From IMG/VR virus record IMGVR_UViG_3300044511_000090, positions 1 to 64,000 of that record: a stretch of 64,000 bases of DNA. One strand, 5' to 3'. Position 1 is the first letter of the stretch; the number at the start of each line of letters is the position of its first letter. Shown piece by piece: positions 71-11,635 of this stretch. The DNA comes from a virus. The notes under the pieces are model-generated. The model was not told where the DNA came from, did not search any database, and worked only from the letters and a program-made list of their open reading frames with translations. The translations under genes were made by a program, and so were the position numbers.

Positions 71-108
71 TTGACCAATTGCAGCCGCAACGATAGCCTG
101 CAACCATG
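71..108 (+). promoter_or_regulatory. sigma70-like promoter, probably leaderless, for terL
   Basis: TTGACC(71-76)-N17-TAGCCT(94-99)-N6-ATG(106); no SD upstream. Confidence 0.55.
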
Positions 109-3100
109 TTAAGCTCCTCAGACATTGCAGAACTTGAAGCCTATCTGCCGCACGCTACCGACGAAGAGAAGCGGCAAATCAATCAGCACCTTCTCTCGAT
201 CCGCAAAGTCGAAAAGAACTTCCCTTGGGCCGCTTACAGATACGACCCCATCGGCTACGCATACAACGTCCTCGGCCTCTCGATGCTCACCGAAGATCAA
301 AAGACGGCATTGAGAGCCGCCGTAACTCCGCCGTACATGGTCAAGATCGATTCAGGAAACTCGTGCGGCAAAACGCTGATTTGCGCCGTGCTCGTGAACT
401 GGCAATATGACTCCTACAATCCAGGATGCGTTTACACAACGGCCCCGTCGTCGTCGCACGTCAAGCGCGTGCTCTGGGCTCAAATACGAGACCTCAGAGC
501 CAATGCAAAGATCAATCTGCCGCAAGACTTCATTGGCCCGGCAGCGCCGGAAATGCGAAGCGACCCCAACCATTTCGCCATTGGCCTGACCGCAGATAAA
601 GGAGAAGCGATAGCTAACAGCGAAATCATCTACACACCTTCTGGTAAGAAAAAATTCGGAGACATTGCCATAGGAGACATGGTTTTCGCCTGCGATGGCT
701 CTCAAACAAAAGTGACGCATGTTTTTAAGCACTATGGAAGAAAAATTTACAAAGTAACCCTAGTAGATGGTAGGTGTGTTCGTACTGACGGGGACCACCT
801 GTGGAGCGTTATCAACCACAACTACGGCAAATACAAAACTTTCAGGCTGATGTCAACCAAAGAGATGCTGGAAACTGGCGTAACATATGGGGCAACAAAT
901 AGGCCGAAGTATTATTTGCCAACATGCGGGGCGCTGTCGTACAAGCACAAAGAAACAACAATTCCAGCATACACTATGGGGGTATGGCTTGGAGATGGGA
1001 GCTCCAGCGACAGTTCAATAACTTCTGGAGACGCTCAAATGATAGAGCTTCTCAAAAATGACAATCCGAATTGTGGCATGACGGTCAGGACTCCTAAAAA
1101 CAGGAACGCCAGCTTGATACGAATTCTTGGAATGCGTTCAAAGCTGAAATCCATTGGTATGCTTACTTCAAAATGCCGAACTAAAAGAGTCCCAACAGAA
1201 TACATGGACAACTCCACAGATGTCAGGCTAGGAGTGATCCAGGGGCTGATGGACACAGATGGGTACATAAGCCCAAATGGGACAACAAGTTTTACGTCAA
1301 CAAGCCCAGGCTTGATTGAAGACATGATGTGGCTTGTCAGATCACTTGGCGGCAGAGCATCATTAAACAACCTAGTTGACATTAAAAACGAACGATCACA
1401 CCCTTGCTACACAATGAACTTTATTCTTCCTGGATTCAGTTGCTTTAGGCTAGACAGGAAAAAACGCAGGGAAGTAAACAGAGACCGCCGAAGGGCCGCT
1501 ATTAAATCGATAGAAGAATGCGGGGTTGAAGATACTACGTGCATAAGAATCGAGCACGAAAGCAGTCTTTTTGTTATCGGAGATGGGATCGTCACCCACA
1601 ACTCCCTCAAGGGCTCTCACTTGGCGCACATGGGGTTCATTTTTGACGAAGACGAAGGATTGGGGCAGATGTATTGGGACTCGGTGCGAACCATGTTCAA
1701 GCCGACTCCAGGAATGTTCTGGCTCACGGTAGGCAACCCGTCAACAGTAAGCAGCCCTGCCTATCTCGAATCCATTCGCACGACGGACGACGGCAAGCCG
1801 ATGTGGCGCAACCTTCGCATGAGCGTGCTCGATCACCCAAACATCATTGCCGCCAGCAAGGGGCTTCCGCCTCCAATCCCCAAAGCTGTGACGGCAGAAC
1901 AGGTCGATGTCTGGGTCAAACGCCTATGCACTCCGCTTGAAGACGACGAAGAACATCGTGTCACAGACTTCCAGTGGAGAGGCAAATGGCATCGGCCAAG
2001 CGGCGAAGGCGAAACAGTCATCCTTGGTCGTCGCCCATCAACAGGAGCTTCCGGCGTCTGGTCGGACGCCCTCTGGGATGCCTGCTGCCGCCTCGAATTG
2101 CCCTTCCCAATCGACGAAATGCCCGAACTTGGCTGTGACGTGGCCAGAGTGCTTGGCGGCGATAATTGCGACATACATGCCCAATGGGGCGGCAACTCCA
2201 TCGCCCATGACTCAGCAAATGGCCGATCCATACCTGCTACAATCGCTCGGCTCAAGGAAATGGCCGAAGAGGTCTGCGAGTTTGCAAATGCCAAACGCAT
2301 CGAAATCATCAAGAACAGCAACTTAGAGCCTGAAGAAATCGCACGCGCCATGATGCACAAGCCGTGGATTCCCAAACAAATCCCCATCAAGATCGACGAT
2401 TGCGGCATCGGCAACGTCATCAGCGACTTCAAGGACGGCTGGAACTTCATCCCGGTCAATCCAGGCTGGGCCGCAAAGATGGACCTTCGCTATCCGAACG
2501 TCAGAAGCGAACTATGGTTCGAGACTATGGAAAAGGCCGTCCTCGGCGGCTTGAGTCTGCTCTACTTGCCGGAAGACGAACGGCAGATGCTCCGCATCCA
2601 GGCTTTCGCGCCAACATGGAAGCAGAACGAACGCCGAATGCGAGTTGTCGAGTCCAAAGAAGACACGAAGAAAAGACTTGGCCGATCACCGGACTGTTTT
2701 GTTGCTGGGACAAAAATCAAAACAATCAACGGAAACAAGCCAATCGAAGAAATTATGCTTGGCGAACTCGTATACACACGAAACGGATGGCATCCGGTTA
2801 TTGGGCATGGGCAAACTGAAGAAACCTCTGAAACCGTAATTGCGTCATTTTCAAACGGAGAAACGCTTGAAGCATCTCCAAACCACCCTGTTTTTGTTGA
2901 CAATAAAGGGTGGGTTCGTATCGACGCATTGGCACTGTCTGATAACATAGTCGAATGCCACAACCACAAGTTACTGTCGTGTTCAACGGGATCACTTTCA
3001 TCAGGTTCCCTGAAAGCAAAAGCGAATCTTCTCGAAAGTATTTTTACCCGTTTGCTAACAACCGAAGACTCAGTGGAATTGGCGCTCTTCATCAGGCTGT

Positions 3101-3876
3101 TTGGCGGCATCACCACGGCGAAATACCACCAAAACACGATATTCACCACGTTGATGGAAACCCTCTCAACAACGATATTTCCAACCTTGAGTGCCTCACA
3201 AAGAAAGATCATGCTGAAAGACACAGAGGCACATGCTCAGAAAGGAAGAAAGCGAACCTCGACAGGATACGCCATCTTACCAAAGAATGGCACTCAAGCG
3301 ATGAGGGAAGAAAATGGCATTCTGAGCACGCTAGGAAATCTTATGAGTCCAGAGTTCCTGTCGTCAAAACATGCGACCAGTGCAGCAAAGAATACAAAAA
3401 CTTTTCTCGCAGGGAAACAGACAGGTTTTGCTCATCTAAATGCGCTCAAAAATGGTATTACAGACATAAAACAATGTTTGTTGAATCTTCTTGCCCTGAG
3501 TGCGGAATCAAAACTAAAAAGCAGCCTGGGCGCGGCAAGAAGTGCTGCTCTCAATCATGTGGTGCGCGTAGAAGGTGGAGGCTCAAAAAAGAAGGTGTTC
3601 AATCTGACAGTTGATTCTGAGCATGAGTATTTTGCAAACGGAATACTCGTACACAATTGCATGGACGCCTTCAACTTGGCCCATTTTCACGCCAATTTCG
3701 GCTCTCCAAAGCTCATATCTATCGAGACCGGCGTATCTCGCGCAAGCAAAACGATGGGCGCTCGCATCGGCATCGGTGGCATCGGCCAGCGCGGGTCACA
3801 ACCAGCTGCTGACCGAGGCGAAGAACCGCCGCGAAGGGAAGAAAAGCGATCACTTTGGGGAAAGAACAGGCGGTGA
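106..3876 (+). CDS. terL: Terminase large subunit interrupted by two inteins
   Basis: Walker A SGNSCGKT, Walker B FIFDE, GNP coupling motif, nuclease LGCDVAR, and C-terminal SPD/CMDA once the inteins are removed. Confidence 0.92.
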   Translation: MLSSSDIAELEAYLPHATDEEKRQINQHLLSIRKVEKNFPWAAYRYDPIGYAYNVLGLSMLTEDQKTALRAAVTPPYMVKIDSGNSCGKTLICAVLVNWQYDSYNPGCVYTTAPSSSHVKRVLWAQIRDLRANAKINLPQDFIGPAAPEMRSDPNHFAIGLTADKGEAIANSEIIYTPSGKKKFGDIAIGDMVFACDGSQTKVTHVFKHYGRKIYKVTLVDGRCVRTDGDHLWSVINHNYGKYKTFRLMSTKEMLETGVTYGATNRPKYYLPTCGALSYKHKETTIPAYTMGVWLGDGSSSDSSITSGDAQMIELLKNDNPNCGMTVRTPKNRNASLIRILGMRSKLKSIGMLTSKCRTKRVPTEYMDNSTDVRLGVIQGLMDTDGYISPNGTTSFTSTSPGLIEDMMWLVRSLGGRASLNNLVDIKNERSHPCYTMNFILPGFSCFRLDRKKRREVNRDRRRAAIKSIEECGVEDTTCIRIEHESSLFVIGDGIVTHNSLKGSHLAHMGFIFDEDEGLGQMYWDSVRTMFKPTPGMFWLTVGNPSTVSSPAYLESIRTTDDGKPMWRNLRMSVLDHPNIIAASKGLPPPIPKAVTAEQVDVWVKRLCTPLEDDEEHRVTDFQWRGKWHRPSGEGETVILGRRPSTGASGVWSDALWDACCRLELPFPIDEMPELGCDVARVLGGDNCDIHAQWGGNSIAHDSANGRSIPATIARLKEMAEEVCEFANAKRIEIIKNSNLEPEEIARAMMHKPWIPKQIPIKIDDCGIGNVISDFKDGWNFIPVNPGWAAKMDLRYPNVRSELWFETMEKAVLGGLSLLYLPEDERQMLRIQAFAPTWKQNERRMRVVESKEDTKKRLGRSPDCFVAGTKIKTINGNKPIEEIMLGELVYTRNGWHPVIGHGQTEETSETVIASFSNGETLEASPNHPVFVDNKGWVRIDALALSDNIVECHNHKLLSCSTGSLSSGSLKAKANLLESIFTRLLTTEDSVELALFIRLFGGITTAKYHQNTIFTTLMETLSTTIFPTLSASQRKIMLKDTEAHAQKGRKRTSTGYAILPKNGTQAMREENGILSTLGNLMSPEFLSSKHATSAAKNTKTFLAGKQTGFAHLNALKNGITDIKQCLLNLLALSAESKLKSSLGAARSAALNHVVRVEGGGSKKKVFNLTVDSEHEYFANGILVHNCMDAFNLAHFHANFGSPKLISIETGVSRASKTMGARIGIGGIGQRGSQPAADRGEEPPRREEKRSLWGKNRR
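607..1602 (+). mobile_element. Class 3-type intein with LAGLIDADG endonuclease (332 aa)
   Basis: Starts with Ala (AIANSEIIYTPSG); TDGDHLW block B, TTCI block F, IVTHN/S end (W-C-T triplet); GVWLGDGS and GLMDTDG dodecapeptide motifs. Confidence 0.88.
2695..3657 (+). mobile_element. Intein (321 aa) with an out-of-frame HNH gene in its endonuclease slot
   Basis: CFVAGTKI start, ASPNHPV block B, VFNLTV...YFANGILVHN/C end. Confidence 0.9.
2955..3614 (+). CDS. HNH homing endonuclease with C-terminal Cys-rich repeats, nested in an alternate frame
   Basis: LHQAVW..HHGEIP...IHHVDGNPLNNDISNLECLT...H; CxxC/FCSxxC motifs; TGnTAACAT-N6-ATG upstream. Confidence 0.85.
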   Translation: MPQPQVTVVFNGITFIRFPESKSESSRKYFYPFANNRRLSGIGALHQAVWRHHHGEIPPKHDIHHVDGNPLNNDISNLECLTKKDHAERHRGTCSERKKANLDRIRHLTKEWHSSDEGRKWHSEHARKSYESRVPVVKTCDQCSKEYKNFSRRETDRFCSSKCAQKWYYRHKTMFVESSCPECGIKTKKQPGRGKKCCSQSCGARRRWRLKKEGVQSDS

Positions 3877-5792: not shown

Positions 5793-6536
5793 TCAACTGG
5801 CAATCGTTCCGGTTTCTGGAAACAGCCTGGAATCCCACATGCGCTTGTTCTTTTCCACTGTATTCCAGAGGAAATTGACAATTTGCTTGGCCTCTCCAGC
5901 CCTCTCAATCGCTTTGGCCTCGACTTGCCGAACCCGCTCTTTGCTAACTCCCCAATCGTCAGCTATCTGCTGAAGGGTCTCGCCTTTCTCGAATCGTCGC
6001 ACGAGGACTTCGACATGCTTCGGCTTGAGCAAGAGAGACAGGATGCACTTGGTCTCAGGCATCATGGTCTCGCGTGGTTCTTCGTACTCTGGCCGATCCA
6101 AAACGTCGAACTGCAAATTCTCTCGACAGTCTTTTGTTTCTGAAAACTTATCCGACAACGAGATAACGCCATACTTTCTTGAGAACGAATTGAACACTTG
6201 GCCAATTCTTGATGTCAAAACAAGTGCCGCTCTTTGGACCCGATGCCTGATCCTGAACGTGGCATGTGTTGACCTTTTGGTGTTGTAAGATGGGTCAAAC
6301 GACAGGCACGACTCGCAAAGGCCAATGACGGCGGCTTGCGCCAAGTCTTCTGCAAATTGGCCTACTAATTTGTAAGGCTTGATGTTGTTTGTTACCATCG
6401 CCAAGAAGCGAGCATACCTGTTAGCGATTTTGAACGCTAGGCCGAGATTCTCGACCACCCATTCCCGTTCTTCTGGCGTGAGTTGCCTTGACTTCGGCTG
6501 TTCGGCAGAGATTATGCCCTGAGTCGATTGCTGCAT
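5793..6536 (-). CDS. Sigma70-family RNA polymerase sigma factor-like protein
   Basis: ENLGLAFKIA, EDLAQAAVIGL...FDP region 2; TLQQIADDWGVSKERVRQVE region 4 HTH. Confidence 0.85.
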   Translation of the reverse strand: MQQSTQGIISAEQPKSRQLTPEEREWVVENLGLAFKIANRYARFLAMVTNNIKPYKLVGQFAEDLAQAAVIGLCESCLSFDPSYNTKRSTHATFRIRHRVQRAALVLTSRIGQVFNSFSRKYGVISLSDKFSETKDCRENLQFDVLDRPEYEEPRETMMPETKCILSLLLKPKHVEVLVRRFEKGETLQQIADDWGVSKERVRQVEAKAIERAGEAKQIVNFLWNTVEKNKRMWDSRLFPETGTIAS

Positions 6537-6689
6537 TGTCGTGCTCCGTAATCGGCCAGGGCGGACTGTGTGAGAGCAGTGCCGCCCATTTTTCATTCAC
6601 CATTGCTTGTTGTATCAGATGAAGCCGGGTCTGTCTCAAGCAGGCACTTCTGGCAAATCATCTGATTCCACATTTAGAGAGTGTACGTG

Positions 6690-7010
6690 TTATGGCCTCA
6701 TGTGATCCGTGACGAGATAATCAAGTTCACCGTAAACGAATTCAACGTCATACCATCCTGGCTGGAAACCGTCTTTTTTATCGCCGTTTTTTTGGATCAG
6801 TGCGATGGACTTGATTTCAGTTGCGTACATCCACGGATAGATTTGATGCTTCAGAGGCATGATTCTTGGCCCATCGTAGCCGATTGTAGGCAAACGATGC
6901 GATTTCTTACCACCAAGCATTCCATCCGAAGGAACATCGCCAAGAATCAGCCTGATGGCAGAACATATGCCTCTTGGTGTTCTACACAGGAAAGGGATTG
7001 TTTGTGTCAT
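6690..7010 (-). CDS. Hypothetical protein
   Basis: ORF in operon orientation, starting just after the orphan stop at 7018. Confidence 0.5.
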   Translation of the reverse strand: MTQTIPFLCRTPRGICSAIRLILGDVPSDGMLGGKKSHRLPTIGYDGPRIMPLKHQIYPWMYATEIKSIALIQKNGDKKDGFQPGWYDVEFVYGELDYLVTDHMRP

Positions 7011-7017
7011 TGATCAC

Positions 7018-7077
7018 TTAATCGAACAAGAACAGCTTCACGTTGGCGGTCGAGCCAGAGTAGTTGCCGATGGCGAT
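7018..7077 (-). pseudogene. Orphaned original 3' end of gene 7735-8196
   Basis: Encodes IAIGNYSGSTANVKLFLFD*, identical to the C-terminus of 7735-8196 but with different codons. Confidence 0.9.
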
Positions 7078-7727
7078 GACAGAGACTTTTCGACTGACCA
7101 CCCTCTTTTTATTCTCTTTGAAATCGTCAGCCTAGATATTCCGGTAATTTCAGCCCATTCCGATAAGCACATCGTTCTGCCAAAGCACGATATAATCCTA
7201 TTGGACCTCTTATTCCTTTGCTGCTCAATTTGAGTAGCCCATCTTACATTTCCAGGCTTGTAGTCTCCGTCATTATCAGGGAACCTGTCAAGCGAATGGG
7301 AGGGAGACGGCCTGTATCCAACATCCAGCAAGAAATTGCTGAAAGAGTTTGCCCACCTTTCGCAAACTCTTATGCCCCTGCCACCATAGTCTTTGAAGTC
7401 ATGCGACGTTTTTCTTGTGCATCTCTTTTTGATTGCGGCCCACGCCGCGTATTCTGGAGATTGCTTTCTTGTCTTAGATTTACTGCATCCGTGGACAAAT
7501 CTTCGACTCTTGGTGGAATCTCTAGTAGCACATCCGCAGCTTGAATTCCCTGCTAAAAGAGTTGAAGAACTTACAATATCGACATTACCACAATCGCACC
7601 GGCACTTCCAAGAGCACAATGTTTTAGACCCGAACTTTCTTTTGCCTTCGTATGAAATAACAACCCGTCTGCCAATTCGATCACCTGTAAGGTTTTTGAA
7701 CTTTTTACTTTTTGGGAAATCAAACAT
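7038..7727 (-). CDS. Free-standing His-Me finger (HNH-type) homing endonuclease
   Basis: WKCRCDCG, YGGRGIRVCERW, SLDRFPDNDGDYKPGNVRWAT..EQQRN; GAGG SD. Confidence 0.85.
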   Translation of the reverse strand: MFDFPKSKKFKNLTGDRIGRRVVISYEGKRKFGSKTLCSWKCRCDCGNVDIVSSSTLLAGNSSCGCATRDSTKSRRFVHGCSKSKTRKQSPEYAAWAAIKKRCTRKTSHDFKDYGGRGIRVCERWANSFSNFLLDVGYRPSPSHSLDRFPDNDGDYKPGNVRWATQIEQQRNKRSNRIISCFGRTMCLSEWAEITGISRLTISKRIKRGWSVEKSLSSPSATTLARPPT

Positions 7728-7734
7728 GGTAGCC

Positions 7735-8196
7735 TCAATCAAAGAGGAACAATTTGACATTCGCAGTAGAACCAGAATAATTTCCAATAGCGATACTGTC
7801 TATCTCCTCCATTGAAGGTTCTGACGATCCAGTTATCAACGCTGTGCTTGCCACAGGACGAATCGAGCCGTAGCCAGAGAGCTTGAACGGCGCATACTTC
7901 CTGACCTTGACCGTCTCGCTTCCGGTCTGGCCGATGAGTTGGAGATAGACCGTCTGATCGGCCCAAAACCACAAGTAGTCGAAGTCTGTCGGGAAGTTGG
8001 AGTCTTCATCCCATGCCGTGCGAACAGTGGCCGTTGGAATCTGGCCGATGTACGTGTATATGAGCCCGGTGACAGTAGGCGACTCAGAAAATGCGTAAAA
8101 CTCGCTGGCCAAAGTGTCGGATTCGCCGTGGTTGGCGGCGAATGTCGTGCCGTTGACCTCGATTGAGAATCGGTCGATGATGTTCAGGTTTGCCAT
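7735..8196 (-). CDS. Hypothetical (possibly virion) protein; target of the HNH insertion
   Basis: GAGG SD; GC3-rich body switching to AT3-rich in the last ~40 codons. Confidence 0.75.
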   Translation of the reverse strand: MANLNIIDRFSIEVNGTTFAANHGESDTLASEFYAFSESPTVTGLIYTYIGQIPTATVRTAWDEDSNFPTDFDYLWFWADQTVYLQLIGQTGSETVKVRKYAPFKLSGYGSIRPVASTALITGSSEPSMEEIDSIAIGNYSGSTANVKLFLFD

Positions 8197-8242
8197 TGCA
8201 GTGCCTCATGGTTGTGGGATGAAACAGTCGATCCGATTGGCC

Positions 8243-8461
8243 TCAGATCGTGTCGATGAAGCCGTGCGTATGCGACATCTTGATAAGATCGTCAGCAGCC
8301 TGCAACGCTTCGATGCGGCTGTATCTGCGGGAATAGAATTCGTTGCCAAGATAAACGTCATAACTTCCGTCATCGCGTTCGAGGACAAGAACTTTCTTTC
8401 TGACCATCACTTGTCCGGCCTTCCATCGCTCCAGTTGCTTTTTCTTCTTCGATTTTTCCAT
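8243..8461 (-). CDS. Hypothetical protein
   Basis: ORF with GGGG SD-like element. Confidence 0.5.
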   Translation of the reverse strand: MEKSKKKKQLERWKAGQVMVRKKVLVLERDDGSYDVYLGNEFYSRRYSRIEALQAADDLIKMSHTHGFIDTI

Positions 8462-8504
8462 GTCATCCCCTTTTGGTTCGTGATCAGATTGGCCACTTGT
8501 TCTC

Positions 8505-8720
8505 CTACCTTTCGTCGTGATCGGTCTCTCCTCTGAAATGCTTGCCAAGACCTGGACTTGATGCTTGGCCAAGTTCTCGCTGGAATTTCCATCCGCACAG
8601 TTTGCTGCCAGAGCTAATCGGCAGAGGCACTCCGTTAGCGTCTGAGTTGCACATCACTATATCACGCTCGGCGTCAGTTTCAAAAGACCATCCGCCACAT
8701 TTCGGGCAAGCGAAGTCCAT
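8505..8720 (-). CDS. Small Zn-finger protein (paralog A)
   Basis: CPKCGG...CNSD..GVPL.ISSGS..CGW shared with 11330-11515; GGAG SD. Confidence 0.6.
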   Translation of the reverse strand: MDFACPKCGGWSFETDAERDIVMCNSDANGVPLPISSGSKLCGWKFQRELGQASSPGLGKHFRGETDHDER

Positions 8721-8793
8721 TTCTTCTCCAGTTTGATCACAACCATACGGGAACTGATCGGAGTCGGGTCAGTGCGGCGCTGGGCTGGGTTGT

Positions 8794-9012
8794 TCATGTT
8801 TCTTCTCGGATGTACTTGGCGACCTGTTCCAGTTGGTCAGGCGTCAAATACTCTCCAACAAACAAAGCGAACTTCCCTTTTGACACAAGACCGACCTCTT
8901 GGCCACGCAACGAGACTGTCCAGTACGTCCAGTCGTTAGGACGGCGGCACTTCTTGAACTCAAGCTGTTCTGTTGTTGTGCTGCTCACGCTTCCACTCCT
9001 TGATAAACTCAA
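8794..9012 (-). CDS. Small hypothetical protein, tandem paralog of 8960-9256
   Basis: LEFK..RR....WTV.LRG..VG..S.G.F....G..LT...LEQV shared. Confidence 0.6.
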   Translation of the reverse strand: MSLSRSGSVSSTTTEQLEFKKCRRPNDWTYWTVSLRGQEVGLVSKGKFALFVGEYLTPDQLEQVAKYIREET

Positions 9013-9256
9013 CGACTTGTTCCAAATGCTCCTGTGTCAGCCATTGTCCGGCATAGGCCACGAACAAGCCCTGTGACGCCGTGCCGACAGGTTCGCCGCG
9101 AAGCAATACCGTCCAGGACATCAAACCGTCATGACGGCGATTCGGCTTGAATTCGAGAGACGGGGCTTTTATTGGTTCTGGCATACGAGACTCCCTCTGG
9201 CCGTTACTATACACACCCAAGTCGGCAAGCACGGCATTCACCAGCGCCGGATTCAT
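8960..9256 (-). CDS. Small hypothetical protein, tandem paralog of 8794-9012
   Basis: Same shared motif. Confidence 0.6.
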   Translation of the reverse strand: MNPALVNAVLADLGVYSNGQRESRMPEPIKAPSLEFKPNRRHDGLMSWTVLLRGEPVGTASQGLFVAYAGQWLTQEHLEQVVEFIKEWKREQHNNRTA

Positions 9257-9267
9257 CCACGCCCCTG

Positions 9268-9372
9268 TTACGAAAACATCTCAGCTTGAGCCGGTTCAAC
9301 ATCCTCAAACAAGCTGCCCTTGCCGTTCGCTTCTTCGATTCGGCGGCAGGCAATGTCGAAATATTTCAGCTC
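9268..9372 (-). pseudogene. Orphaned alternative 3' end of DNA methyltransferase 9862-10563
   Basis: ELKYFDIACRRIEEANGKGSLFED aligns with CEKYFAAAVKRIEEAWGKYSLFDE. Confidence 0.8.
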
Positions 9373-9390
9373 ACTGCATGTCCTATGAAT

Positions 9391-9408
9391 TGTTATAATA
9401 CAGGAATG
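9391..9408 (+). promoter_or_regulatory. Extended -10 leaderless promoter of HNH gene
   Basis: TGtTATAAT(9391-9399)-N6-ATG(9406). Confidence 0.6.
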
Positions 9409-9921
9409 AGAACAAAACCAACCATCATTGTCTGTAAGAACTGCGGGAAAACGGCATCCATACATTCCTATCGACTTCGGAATGGAACAGGAAAGTATTG
9501 CAGTTCGACTTGCTATTTTGCCAACCGGTGGAAACATGACGGGAATTGCCGCCAATGCCAAAAAAAATCCAAGACACGATTCTGTAATTCTGTTTGTCGA
9601 AAAGCATATTGGAATCGTGAGAGTTATCGACAGCATAAAACTAAGCGTAATTGGGAACGTAAACTGGCATTGATTAACGAGCTTGGCGGAAAATGCTGCA
9701 AATGCGGAATAAACGATCCCCGCGTATTGGACATCGACCATATTGACAGCACACAAAAAAAACGGCCTAAAAAACGCCAATGGACTTGGCATCGTCGTTT
9801 TGCTGATTGGGCAGCTAACAAAGGAAACCTCAGACTGTTGTGTGCAAATTGTCATCGTGTATTAACCTGGAAACAACGTCGATTCGGCCTTGTCAATGGC
9901 AAGTCTGTCCTCATCGAATAG
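9406..9921 (+). CDS. HNH endonuclease with N-terminal Cys-rich repeats
   Basis: CKNCG, YCSSTC, FCNSVC; GGKCCKCG...LDIDHID...NLRLLCANCH. Confidence 0.85.
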   Translation: MRTKPTIIVCKNCGKTASIHSYRLRNGTGKYCSSTCYFANRWKHDGNCRQCQKKSKTRFCNSVCRKAYWNRESYRQHKTKRNWERKLALINELGGKCCKCGINDPRVLDIDHIDSTQKKRPKKRQWTWHRRFADWAANKGNLRLLCANCHRVLTWKQRRFGLVNGKSVLIE

Positions 9922-10563
9922 CGAATATTTTCCCCACGCCTCTTCAATTCTTTTCACAGCAGCAGCAAAGTATTTCTCGCATATTTCGATGCCGATGAAG
10001 CGACGACCGGTACGGACGCAGGCAACGCCGGTGGAACCGCTTCCGCAGTATGGATCGAGAATCGTGTCGGCATCCGGTATAAAGCCGAGACACCATTGCA
10101 TCAAGGCGACGGGCTTTTGGGTGGGGTGGACTCGCTCTATATCCTGTTCGCTGGCGCGAATCATTCCCATCCATCTGTGAGAAAACAATCGCGCTGGCTG
10201 GCGCAAGTTTGTCCATGCCATCTCACAATCGGCCATGTCATTACTTCTGCCTCCTTCCCTCTTGTCCCATATCAACCAAGAATCCATCGCGGGAAGGCGA
10301 TTGCTGTAATGATTCCCACCCCAGAGGATTAGAAACTTGAAATCCAGAAGCGGTCTTGGGTCAAACGGGTGGCAATCATCAATAATCCGCTCAAACTTAC
10401 CGCGAGCAGCTGAACAGTCTCCACCAGAAGGATTGTAACTAATCCCATACGGCGGGTCCGTCACTACCGCGTCCACGCTGCCAGCCGCCAGCGTCGGCAG
10501 CACTTCCAGGCAATCGCCGCGATACAGCACATGCTCGCCAATCTGGACACGCTCGAAGCTCAT
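9862..10563 (-). CDS. DNA methyltransferase (N6-A/N4-C, beta class)
   Basis: GDCLEVL, TDPPYG, HPTQKP, ILDPYCGSGSTG, FIGIE. Confidence 0.92.
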   Translation of the reverse strand: MSFERVQIGEHVLYRGDCLEVLPTLAAGSVDAVVTDPPYGISYNPSGGDCSAARGKFERIIDDCHPFDPRPLLDFKFLILWGGNHYSNRLPAMDSWLIWDKREGGRSNDMADCEMAWTNLRQPARLFSHRWMGMIRASEQDIERVHPTQKPVALMQWCLGFIPDADTILDPYCGSGSTGVACVRTGRRFIGIEICEKYFAAAVKRIEEAWGKYSLFDEDRLAIDKAESTLFPG

Positions 10564-10649
10564 CCCCCGCTCCTGTAGGTGGCCCCGCTGCCGCGCTTTC
10601 CCCCGCAGCAGCGCCCGCCGCAAGTCCCAAACGGCGAGTTGGGCCATGT

Positions 10650-10916
10650 TCAGCATTCTCTCCAGACGCCACGTTCCAAAAATCCGTGCCATTTTTCTTC
10701 ATGCGTCGAAATCAAAATCGACGGCGAAACAGTTATCGTGCGGTCATCATGCTCAGTAATTTTGTGGTGCCGAACGCCGTCACCTAAGTTGCCGAGAAAA
10801 TCCCCGCGCGGAGCCCTGCAATACCAGAGCCCTTGCCACTGGCCGTAATCGCCCGGCTCGTACAAGTGCGGGGAAACATCGGTTCGACGACCCATCATCG
10901 GTTGACTTCCTTTCAC
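10650..10916 (-). CDS. Small protein, DUF6527-like
   Basis: H.ITEH.D.TITVSPSIL...WHGFLERGVW. Confidence 0.55.
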   Translation of the reverse strand: MKGSQPMMGRRTDVSPHLYEPGDYGQWQGLWYCRAPRGDFLGNLGDGVRHHKITEHDDRTITVSPSILISTHEEKWHGFLERGVWREC

Positions 10917-11329: not shown

Positions 11330-11515
11330 TTACCCGGCATCAGAAGCATCACCCTTGTCGGCCTCGTTGCACTCTTCGCCGCTCCCCATCCAGCCACAGA
11401 TACGACTGCCTGAGCTAATGGATAGCGGCACGCCGCGTATGTCCGAATTGCACCAGAAGGCATCGCCCTCTCTGCCGAACACCGAGCCACCACACTTTGG
11501 ACACTTGAAACCCAT
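11330..11515 (-). CDS. Small Zn-finger protein (paralog B)
   Basis: GGAGG SD; similar to 8505-8720. Confidence 0.6.
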   Translation of the reverse strand: MGFKCPKCGGSVFGREGDAFWCNSDIRGVPLSISSGSRICGWMGSGEECNEADKGDASDAG

Positions 11516-11635
11516 GTCGCCCTCCCTGGAATCAAAAAACAGTGTCAGTCTCAATAAGGCGGATATAACCCCGTGTTTTGGGACACTTTTGGCCCTTATT
11601 GAGACTGATAGCCGTCAATCTGGGCAAAATGGCCT

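Follow-up and report, generated by a model that had tools for sequence, protein, structure and literature searches.

A phage HNH endonuclease gene between two synonymously different copies of a gene end, a probable end-replacement homing cassette

Gene organization at the locus and the duplicated gene end

We analyzed a locus in a phage genome from lake water (IMG/VR record IMGVR_UViG_3300044511_000090) at which a free-standing gene for an HNH-type endonuclease lies directly behind an intact gene, here called gene X, and is followed by a second copy of the end of gene X. The genome is a single contig of 74,144 bp with 50.6% G+C, and its first 64 kb form the window, the whole stretch of DNA that was analyzed. 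All coordinates given are window positions, and all genes of the locus are on the minus strand. The gene content of the contig is of phage type and includes a sigma factor, a methyltransferase and several HNH genes, and the genome was detected repeatedly in lake-water metagenomes. The features discussed below are listed in Table 1.

The terminal peptide of gene X reads ...SIAIGNYSGSTANVKLFLFD and is followed by a TGA stop; the gene end reads ...DSIAIGNYSGSTANVKLFLFD, with the TGA at 7737..7735. The HNH gene is an open reading frame (ORF) of its own behind this stop codon and has its own translation signals. Its GAGG ribosome-binding site is formed by the G and A of the gene X stop codon and the next two G's and lies 5 nucleotides (nt) ahead of the ATG, an overlap which suggests that the nuclease is translationally coupled to gene X. 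Beyond the nuclease gene, 7077..7021 encodes IAIGNYSGSTANVKLFLFD again, and a TAA stop follows at 7020..7018. This second copy, called the orphan, has no usable start codon before it and is not part of gene X, and it is therefore not under protein selection. Since the HNH ORF stops inside the orphan in another frame, the last 13 residues of the HNH protein come from orphan DNA. Neither gene X nor the gene of 106 codons downstream of the orphan has a Pfam or PHROG match.

The in-use gene end and the orphan match at 41 of 57 bases (43 of 63 when one flanking codon and the stop codon are included). All 16 base differences are synonymous, 14 of them at third positions and two at first positions of Leu codons, and the longest stretch of identical bases common to both copies is 5 nt. 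In a six-frame all-against-all comparison this was the sole 100%-identical 19-residue repeat of the 74-kb genome (blastp-short E 6.6e-14). The repeat was undetected by a nucleotide repeat finder, as expected given the 5-nt maximum run. Homology between the copies begins at codon 135 (ATC); the codon ahead of it is GTC (Val) in the orphan, while both the in-use copy and the relative described below have AGT (Ser) there, which places the right junction at approximately 7077/7078. The same codon is used in both copies at four positions, against 6.3-7.5 expected from independent back-translations (P 0.07-0.18). The idea that the copies are more different than chance was dropped because this difference is not significant. 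The shared codons fit two independent back-translations, so the synonymous sites are saturated and over-dispersion is not demonstrable.

The two copies also differ in composition. The G+C content at third codon positions (GC3) has a background of 0.54 ± 0.06 in the 54 long ORFs of the genome, and gene X has the highest GC3 of any gene in it. Within gene X, GC3 steps from 0.74 (codons 1-112) to 0.36 (codons 113-154) at about codon 113. The orphan has a GC3 of 0.86 and the HNH gene a GC3 of 0.43 (G+C 0.448). The low-GC3 tract carries residues that are rare at conserved positions of the gene X family (R113, A119 and S124). An earlier reading of this DNA, made from the letters alone (the sequence-only reading), had described 19 amino acids plus stop repeated at 7018-7077 beyond the HNH gene, with 15 of the 19 codons and the stop changed, and the recount gave the same figures. 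Its proposal that the HNH stop is supplied by the orphan in another frame holds as well (the TGA falls within 7018-7077). The GC3 values agree with its description of an orphan which is GC3-rich like the gene body and of about 40 last in-use codons which are AT3-rich like the HNH gene. The foreign tract that it had placed at about 7860..7735 was confirmed, running from about codon 113 to the stop codon.

Table 1. Features of the locus, of the second site in the same genome and of the related loci in other viral contigs (L001 is the relative lacking the nuclease gene; L008, L027, L030 and L041 are other contigs with related nuclease genes)
Feature	Position	Strand	Properties
Gene X	8196..7735	-	153 amino acids; C-terminal end IAIGNYSGSTANVKLFLFD
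Native 5' part of gene X, codons 1-112	7861..8196	-	GC3 0.74; 73% DNA identity to L001
Foreign (recoded) 3' end in use, codons 113-153 and TGA	7735..7860	-	GC3 0.36; codon mismatch to L001
GAGG ribosome-binding site of the HNH gene	7733..7736	-	read from the sequence; overlaps the gene X TGA
Free-standing HNH-type endonuclease gene	7038..7727	-	229 amino acids; ATG at 7727, stop TGA at 7040..7038
Displaced native 3' end (orphan), codons 135-153 and TAA	7018..7077	-	19/19 residues match the in-use end
Downstream gene	6690..7010	-	106 amino acids; native junction with the orphan kept
Methyltransferase gene (second event)	10692..9862	-	end KYFAAAVKRIEEAWGKYSLFDED...; last 43 codons GC3 0.44, body 0.63
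Methyltransferase orphan end	~9268-9350		related peptide KYFDIACRRIEEANGKGSLFED...; GC3 0.58; local alignment score 69
L008, 3'-end case like gene X			in-use copy GC3 0.36, orphan 0.86
L027, 5'-end case	L027:2944-3611		orphaned gene start just upstream of the nuclease gene; first ~20 in-use codons off-composition
L030, 5'-end case	L030:2928-3661		orphaned gene start just upstream of the nuclease gene; first ~20 in-use codons off-composition
L041, 5'-end case			orphaned gene start upstream of the nuclease gene; first ~20 in-use codons off-composition

An empty-site relative and the origin of the two gene ends

An HNH-less relative of the locus was found in IMG/VR as two identical contigs (L001 and L002). 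Its X protein is 73% identical and of the same length (153 amino acids), and the next gene follows 7 nt after gene X, with no nuclease gene. The orphan is separated from the next gene (ATG at 7010) by the same native 7 nt. Eight more distant X loci likewise lack the HNH gene. Presence of the nuclease gene at this site thus varies among related genomes, and relative to the empty site of L001 the HNH gene of the window is an insertion.

Codon usage at residues identical to those of L001 separates the two gene ends. In codons 1-112 of gene X the same codon is used at 50 of 80 identical residues (DNA identity 73%), against 4 of 13 in the in-use codons 113-133 (57%) and 4 of 19 in the last 21 in-use codons (134-154; 68%). 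The orphan uses the codon of L001 at 11 of 18 identical residues (79%), a rate like that of the gene body. The in-use end differs significantly from the body (Fisher P 0.0017), as does the orphan from the in-use end (P 0.019). The in-use end is therefore discordant with the rest of the gene, and the orphan is closer in DNA to the empty-site relative. Together, the codon match to L001 and the GC3 values indicate that the orphan is the original gene end and that about 41 in-use codons arrived with the nuclease gene. The sequence-only reading had predicted that HNH-less alleles carry orphan-type codons, which is what the 73%-identical relative has, and its view that a recoded end plus nuclease was inserted within the ORF, leaving the original end downstream, is supported by the empty site, the codons and GC3 alike.

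A local tandem duplication of the gene end, with divergence in place and later insertion of the HNH gene between the copies, would also give two copies encoding the same 19 residues. However, all 16 differences are synonymous although the orphan is free of protein selection, and 16 randomly placed substitutions preserved the peptide in 0 of 200,000 trials. The orphan has moreover kept the codons of L001, the in-use copy is as different from it as an independent back-translation would be, and the foreign tract, with its different composition, reaches 21 codons beyond the repeat. We therefore regard a tandem duplication as very improbable.

An alternative in which the HNH gene resides within a self-splicing intron or an intein, the downstream copy being the true last exon, was considered because HNH genes are often located in group I introns within phage genes (Barth et al., 2023, PMC10448857). 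No intron RNA family of Rfam matched positions 6000-9000 at E values up to 1. Gene X is collinear with its relative and equal to it in length, so that no splicing is needed, and it stops after a complete C-terminus. The AlphaFold model of the X protein is an all-beta, eight-stranded jelly-roll (predicted local distance difference test score, pLDDT, 90.9) which is confident through the last strand (145-152), and this strand lies within the sandwich. The HNH gene is a separate ORF with its own ribosome-binding site, and a stop codon and a frame change lie between it and gene X. The earlier description of the unit as non-splicing is in line with these results, and an intron or intein can hardly be upheld. 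Since a truncated C-terminus would break the X fold, only insertions which restore the end are expected to survive.

Because the contig was assembled from a metagenome, a chimera of two strains was considered as well. Of the words sampled from 6600-8400, 88-100% occur in eight runs that belong to eight studies (2018 and 2025), and eleven runs of 2018 and 2025 contain all or part of the stretch. Independent contigs from a further lake-water run span 6094-7562 and 7701-8069, and thereby both junctions, without a difference. As the layout recurs across runs and independent contigs it is not an assembly accident, and a chimera is about as implausible an explanation as splicing.

The reading that we prefer, to which we give a probability of roughly 0.72, is that of an end-replacement homing cassette: the HNH gene was inserted into gene X and brought with it about 41 codons of a foreign 3'-end allele of X. 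According to this model the nuclease would cut a naive gene X near codons 133-135, where the orphan starts. The left end of the break would invade a donor consisting of an X end plus HNH gene, and both the donor end and the nuclease gene would be copied. Degradation back to about codon 113 would produce the co-conversion tract of 21 codons. The right end would be rejoined within or at the last 19 codons of the recipient, and these would become the untranslated orphan downstream; in the founding event this right joint would have been imprecise, while later events could use homology with the orphan of the donor. The outcome would be an intact, full-length X protein encoded by a gene whose end differs from the native one at nearly every synonymous site and which is presumably no longer a target. 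The orphan and the downstream gene could then act as the right-hand homology arm for homing into naive relatives. That the nuclease is active, where it cuts, that the recoded end is immune and that the cassette still moves today are parts of the model which we infer.

As no run longer than 5 nt is common to the two copies, recombination between them that deletes the nuclease gene is in our judgment very unlikely. Such protection from deletion would be expected to bias the survivors towards strongly recoded ends.

The nuclease family and recurrence of the layout

The protein encoded by the HNH gene matches PHROG 374 (E 3e-57) and PHROG 3377 (E 2.6e-52), both annotated as HNH endonuclease. More than 1,700 relatives were found, none of them above 52% identity. 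Matches occur in 1,096 phage records, where the RefSeq names are HNH endonuclease or homing endonuclease (for example orf78 of phage D3). An alignment of 35 sequences displays a Cys-rich N-terminal domain (CxCDCG...SCGC), a central region with an HSLDR...N...N motif and a C-terminal helix-turn-helix. The window protein retains all 23 invariant columns of this alignment, and one of its relatives matches the Pfam CapR zinc-finger model. On the basis of family annotation and motif the nuclease is classified as HNH-type. Its AlphaFold model (pLDDT 91.2) had no match in the PDB at E <= 0.001 with Foldseek; an exhaustive structural search gave at its top the HNH restriction enzyme PacI (Z 5.7, root mean square deviation 3.9, 83 residues over 79-177), a modest similarity. 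Family conservation stops at ...GWSVEKSLSSP, which places the right junction in the last few nuclease codons and implies that the nuclease lost its own tail and stop codon. A promoter scan returned no more sites than were found in shuffled sequences.

The methyltransferase gene of this genome is the site of a second event of this kind (Table 1). The nuclease at this site is encoded by a different HNH gene (9406..9921) in the opposite orientation, whose 3' end and the methyltransferase end have 60 nt in common, and the methyltransferase orphan is found past this HNH gene. Here the repeated peptide has diverged too, unlike the 19-residue repeat of gene X.

A survey was carried out on the translated 400-nt flanks of 76 other viral contigs which carry relatives of the HNH gene at 7038-7727, using ungapped scores. 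In total, the flanks of 82 loci were compared. A flank peptide repeat was significant in four of the 76 loci, with scores of 51-59, whereas none of 400 mismatched flank pairs scored above 44. The HNH stop codon is overlapped or abutted by the right-hand copy in all four, as it is at gene X. Three of the positive loci are from GC-rich hosts, and in these the in-use copy has a low GC3 (0.36-0.50) and the orphan a high one (0.67-0.86). One of the four (L008) is a 3'-end case, and the others are 5'-end cases; in L027 and L030 the in-use start has a GC3 of 0.45 against 0.75-1.0. The layout is a minority outcome, amounting to about 5% of the sampled loci. The check for peptide duplications flanking HNH genes across phages that the sequence-only reading had proposed was thus positive in these four contigs, at 3' or 5' gene ends, and negative in the six named phages considered below.

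In L027 the nuclease ORF begins inside the orphaned start, and the target, a RusA-like gene, has a new start of low GC3. From this arrangement the nuclease appears to use the former initiation region of the target gene, while the cassette would supply the target with a new start. Flank matches in L059 and L010 were set aside as Arg-rich and off-frame.

Recurrence bears on a further explanation, in which an X end plus HNH gene was patched in once by illegitimate recombination, the HNH gene being a passenger or inactive and the locus a scar rather than an element. Several features agree with such an accident. The right junction lies in the extreme 3' end of the HNH ORF, whose own stop and tail are gone, and resembles an imprecise joint. 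About 21 native codons are absent between the foreign tract and the orphan. Polymorphism of the insert was not seen in the lake-water runs, and most HNH relatives are without a flank repeat. However, the HNH gene is intact and has kept all positions invariant in its family, its ribosome-binding site is coupled to gene X, and the layout recurs with another HNH gene in the same genome and at the four same-family loci, which is hard to obtain from unrelated accidents. A single accident is in our view unlikely, though it is the most serious competitor of the end-replacement cassette.

A number of observations weigh against the end-replacement cassette. We found no HNH-less allele close to this phage, the sole empty site being that of the 73%-identical relative. 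Scans with the X alignment and with the degenerate peptide pattern GNYSGSTANVKLF (metagenome, genome and viral contigs) gave neither a match nor a close HNH-less allele, and at the DNA level 6400-8700 had no match in 50,697 phage records. Over 5800-9400, four lake-water runs contained no joint that skips the cassette, a result which is based on contigs only and says nothing on rare alleles. With 41 codons, the replaced tract exceeds the 19 codons of the orphan, so that about 21 native codons were lost and resection or co-conversion has to be assumed in addition. The donor end is saturated at synonymous sites and at the same time identical at 19 of 19 residues, which is somewhat unexpected for a distant donor, and the in-use end contains lineage-specific residues (NVKLFL) common to the native end and the relative. 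This combination could have arisen through a shift in composition in a donor that is AT-richer, or through selection acting on the chimeric protein. By sequence the nuclease has no Pfam HNH, NCBIfam or PDB match, and its fold match is modest. No convincing flank repeat was present in six named phages with HNH relatives (D3, PdC23, BcepMigl, SpP, AhaGv and phiAH14a), so the layout is the exception in the HNH family and not the rule; a single score of 50 among these phages was due to low complexity.

A more far-reaching proposal is that the HNH family forms widespread, self-contained cassettes which bring a spare part and invade either end of a gene, that the replacement end is no arbitrary diverged allele but is kept as different as possible at synonymous sites, that this synonymous recoding is an adaptation of the selfish element which both blocks cleavage and removes all homology to the orphan, leaving the host unable to delete the element by recombination, and that such cassettes are a regular source of chimeric phage genes. 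We put this forward tentatively and consider it doubtful rather than probable.

Known systems, the gene X family and further observations

The layout at gene X is known from yeast and from fungal mitochondria, and its logic is not new in principle. WHO elements at the aldolase gene FBA1 of Torulaspora and Lachancea yeasts consist of a nuclease gene and a resistance-conferring 3' end, with a downstream fragment of the target gene as the recombination site, and a double-strand-break repair model has been proposed and partly demonstrated for them (Coughlan et al., 2020; PMC7282813). As in WHO elements, a free-standing endonuclease gene is located just downstream of a full-length target gene without splicing. 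In both cases the 3' part of the target is a diverged replacement (resistance-conferring in WHO elements) whose history disagrees with that of the 5' part, and the former 3' end is found on the far side of the nuclease gene, where in WHO elements it serves as a homology arm. The WHO nuclease differs in being intein-derived (LAGLIDADG plus zinc finger) whereas that at gene X is of the HNH type, and WHO elements reside on a nuclear chromosome and home in meiosis. WHO loci also contain clusters of fragments from repeated homing, whereas a single orphan and a single HNH gene are present at gene X. Cleavage has been shown experimentally for WHO elements, while we infer it here.

Similar 'gene hybrids' with mobile ORFs (mORFs) were described in fungal mitochondria, in atp6 of Allomyces macrogynus and in atp6, atp9, cox2 and nad3 of Glomus (Beaudet et al., 2013; PMC3630166). 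DNA identity to relatives was 91-98% for the native ends and 64-81% for the inserted ends, at the protein level the native end and the relative were 94-100% identical, and the hybrids were interpreted as horizontal transfer of a gene end plus endonuclease (PMC3630166). They have in common with gene X a C-terminal duplication downstream of an inserted endonuclease ORF and the same pattern of nucleotide versus protein similarity. They differ in that their nucleases are LAGLIDADG or GIY-YIG and their hosts are organelle genomes. In some hybrids, furthermore, the ORF is fused in frame with the gene, whereas the nuclease gene at gene X has its own start after the stop codon.

In intronless homing of T4-like phages (SegF, SegG, MobE and the mobA/gene 60 cassette) a free-standing endonuclease gene is located beside its target gene. 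The nuclease gene spreads through repair of a double-strand break, during which flanking markers are co-converted, and differences in sequence protect the donor allele. The gene X locus shares with these cases a phage-borne free-standing endonuclease gene next to a target gene. In the T4-like cases, however, the nuclease gene is intergenic and has homologous flanks on both sides, with the result that neither a duplicated end nor an orphan is formed, whereas the insert described here is inside a coding sequence and carries a replacement end.

Recombination modules bounded by homing endonuclease genes have been reported in ICP1 and other phages (Barth et al., 2023; PMC10448857), and these nuclease genes likewise mark boundaries of exchanged sequence beside conserved phage genes. 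Cys-rich DNA-binding domains of the CapR type occur among such nucleases, and one relative of the HNH protein studied here matches the CapR model. In the passages of that report which were searched, duplicated and recoded gene ends flanking a nuclease gene are not described, and in our literature search, which covered some sources in part, no published phage example of such ends was found. The gene X locus follows the logic of WHO elements and mORF hybrids, but the nuclease belongs to an HNH family, the genome is that of a tailed phage, and both 3' and 5' ends of genes are affected among the cases described here.

If the end-replacement reading is correct, a homing endonuclease can invade a phage coding sequence without intron or intein by supplying a replacement for the part that it severs. 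If general, this would explain why the ends of phage genes can contain short foreign tracts and show odd codon usage, add a route to mosaicism inside genes rather than between them, and provide a signature for annotation in the form of a peptide repeat which flanks a nuclease gene and has one copy off-composition. The identical peptide with 15 of 19 codons changed would mark the probable recognition region of an uncharacterised HNH enzyme, and its specificity is thereby directly testable.

The gene X family comprises 170 clusters of proteins of about 150 residues. The best structural matches of the X model are endospore-appendage subunits, cupins and uncharacterised phage proteins. In distant relatives gene X is located two genes upstream of a major head protein: in L092 and L094-L098 the next gene encodes a protein of about 330 amino acids which is acidic and rich in proline, and the one after it a major head protein (PHROG 9953, E 1e-5). 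In the window and in L001, gene X is found upstream of a sigma-factor gene instead. Its gene position and GC3 suggest that X may be an abundant virion-associated protein.

Further members of the family have unusual ends or lengths. A distant X-family gene without a downstream nuclease (L096:2501-2950) has a GC3 of 0.90 in its body and 0.53 in the last 40 codons; this drop may be what remains of a previous end replacement after loss of the nuclease gene. Five odd forms were noted in metagenomes (P0227, P0251, P0203, P0218 and P0209): two proteins (63 and 76 amino acids) in which the N-terminus is joined straight to the last ~38 residues, two in which the C-terminal half is fused to unrelated N-termini, and one with the first 96 residues followed by unrelated sequence. 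These forms suggest frequent rearrangement within gene X.

Other parts of the window contain two pairs of paralogues on the minus strand. The first pair (8508-8768 and 11333-11614) is Cys-rich (CPKCGG...CNSD..GVPL.ISSGS..CGW) and 57% identical. The second is a tandem pair (8797-9036 and 8963-9280) of about 72 and 98 amino acids with 49% identity. At 106-3876, an ORF of 1,256 amino acids contains an ORF of 219 amino acids (2955..3614) in another frame.

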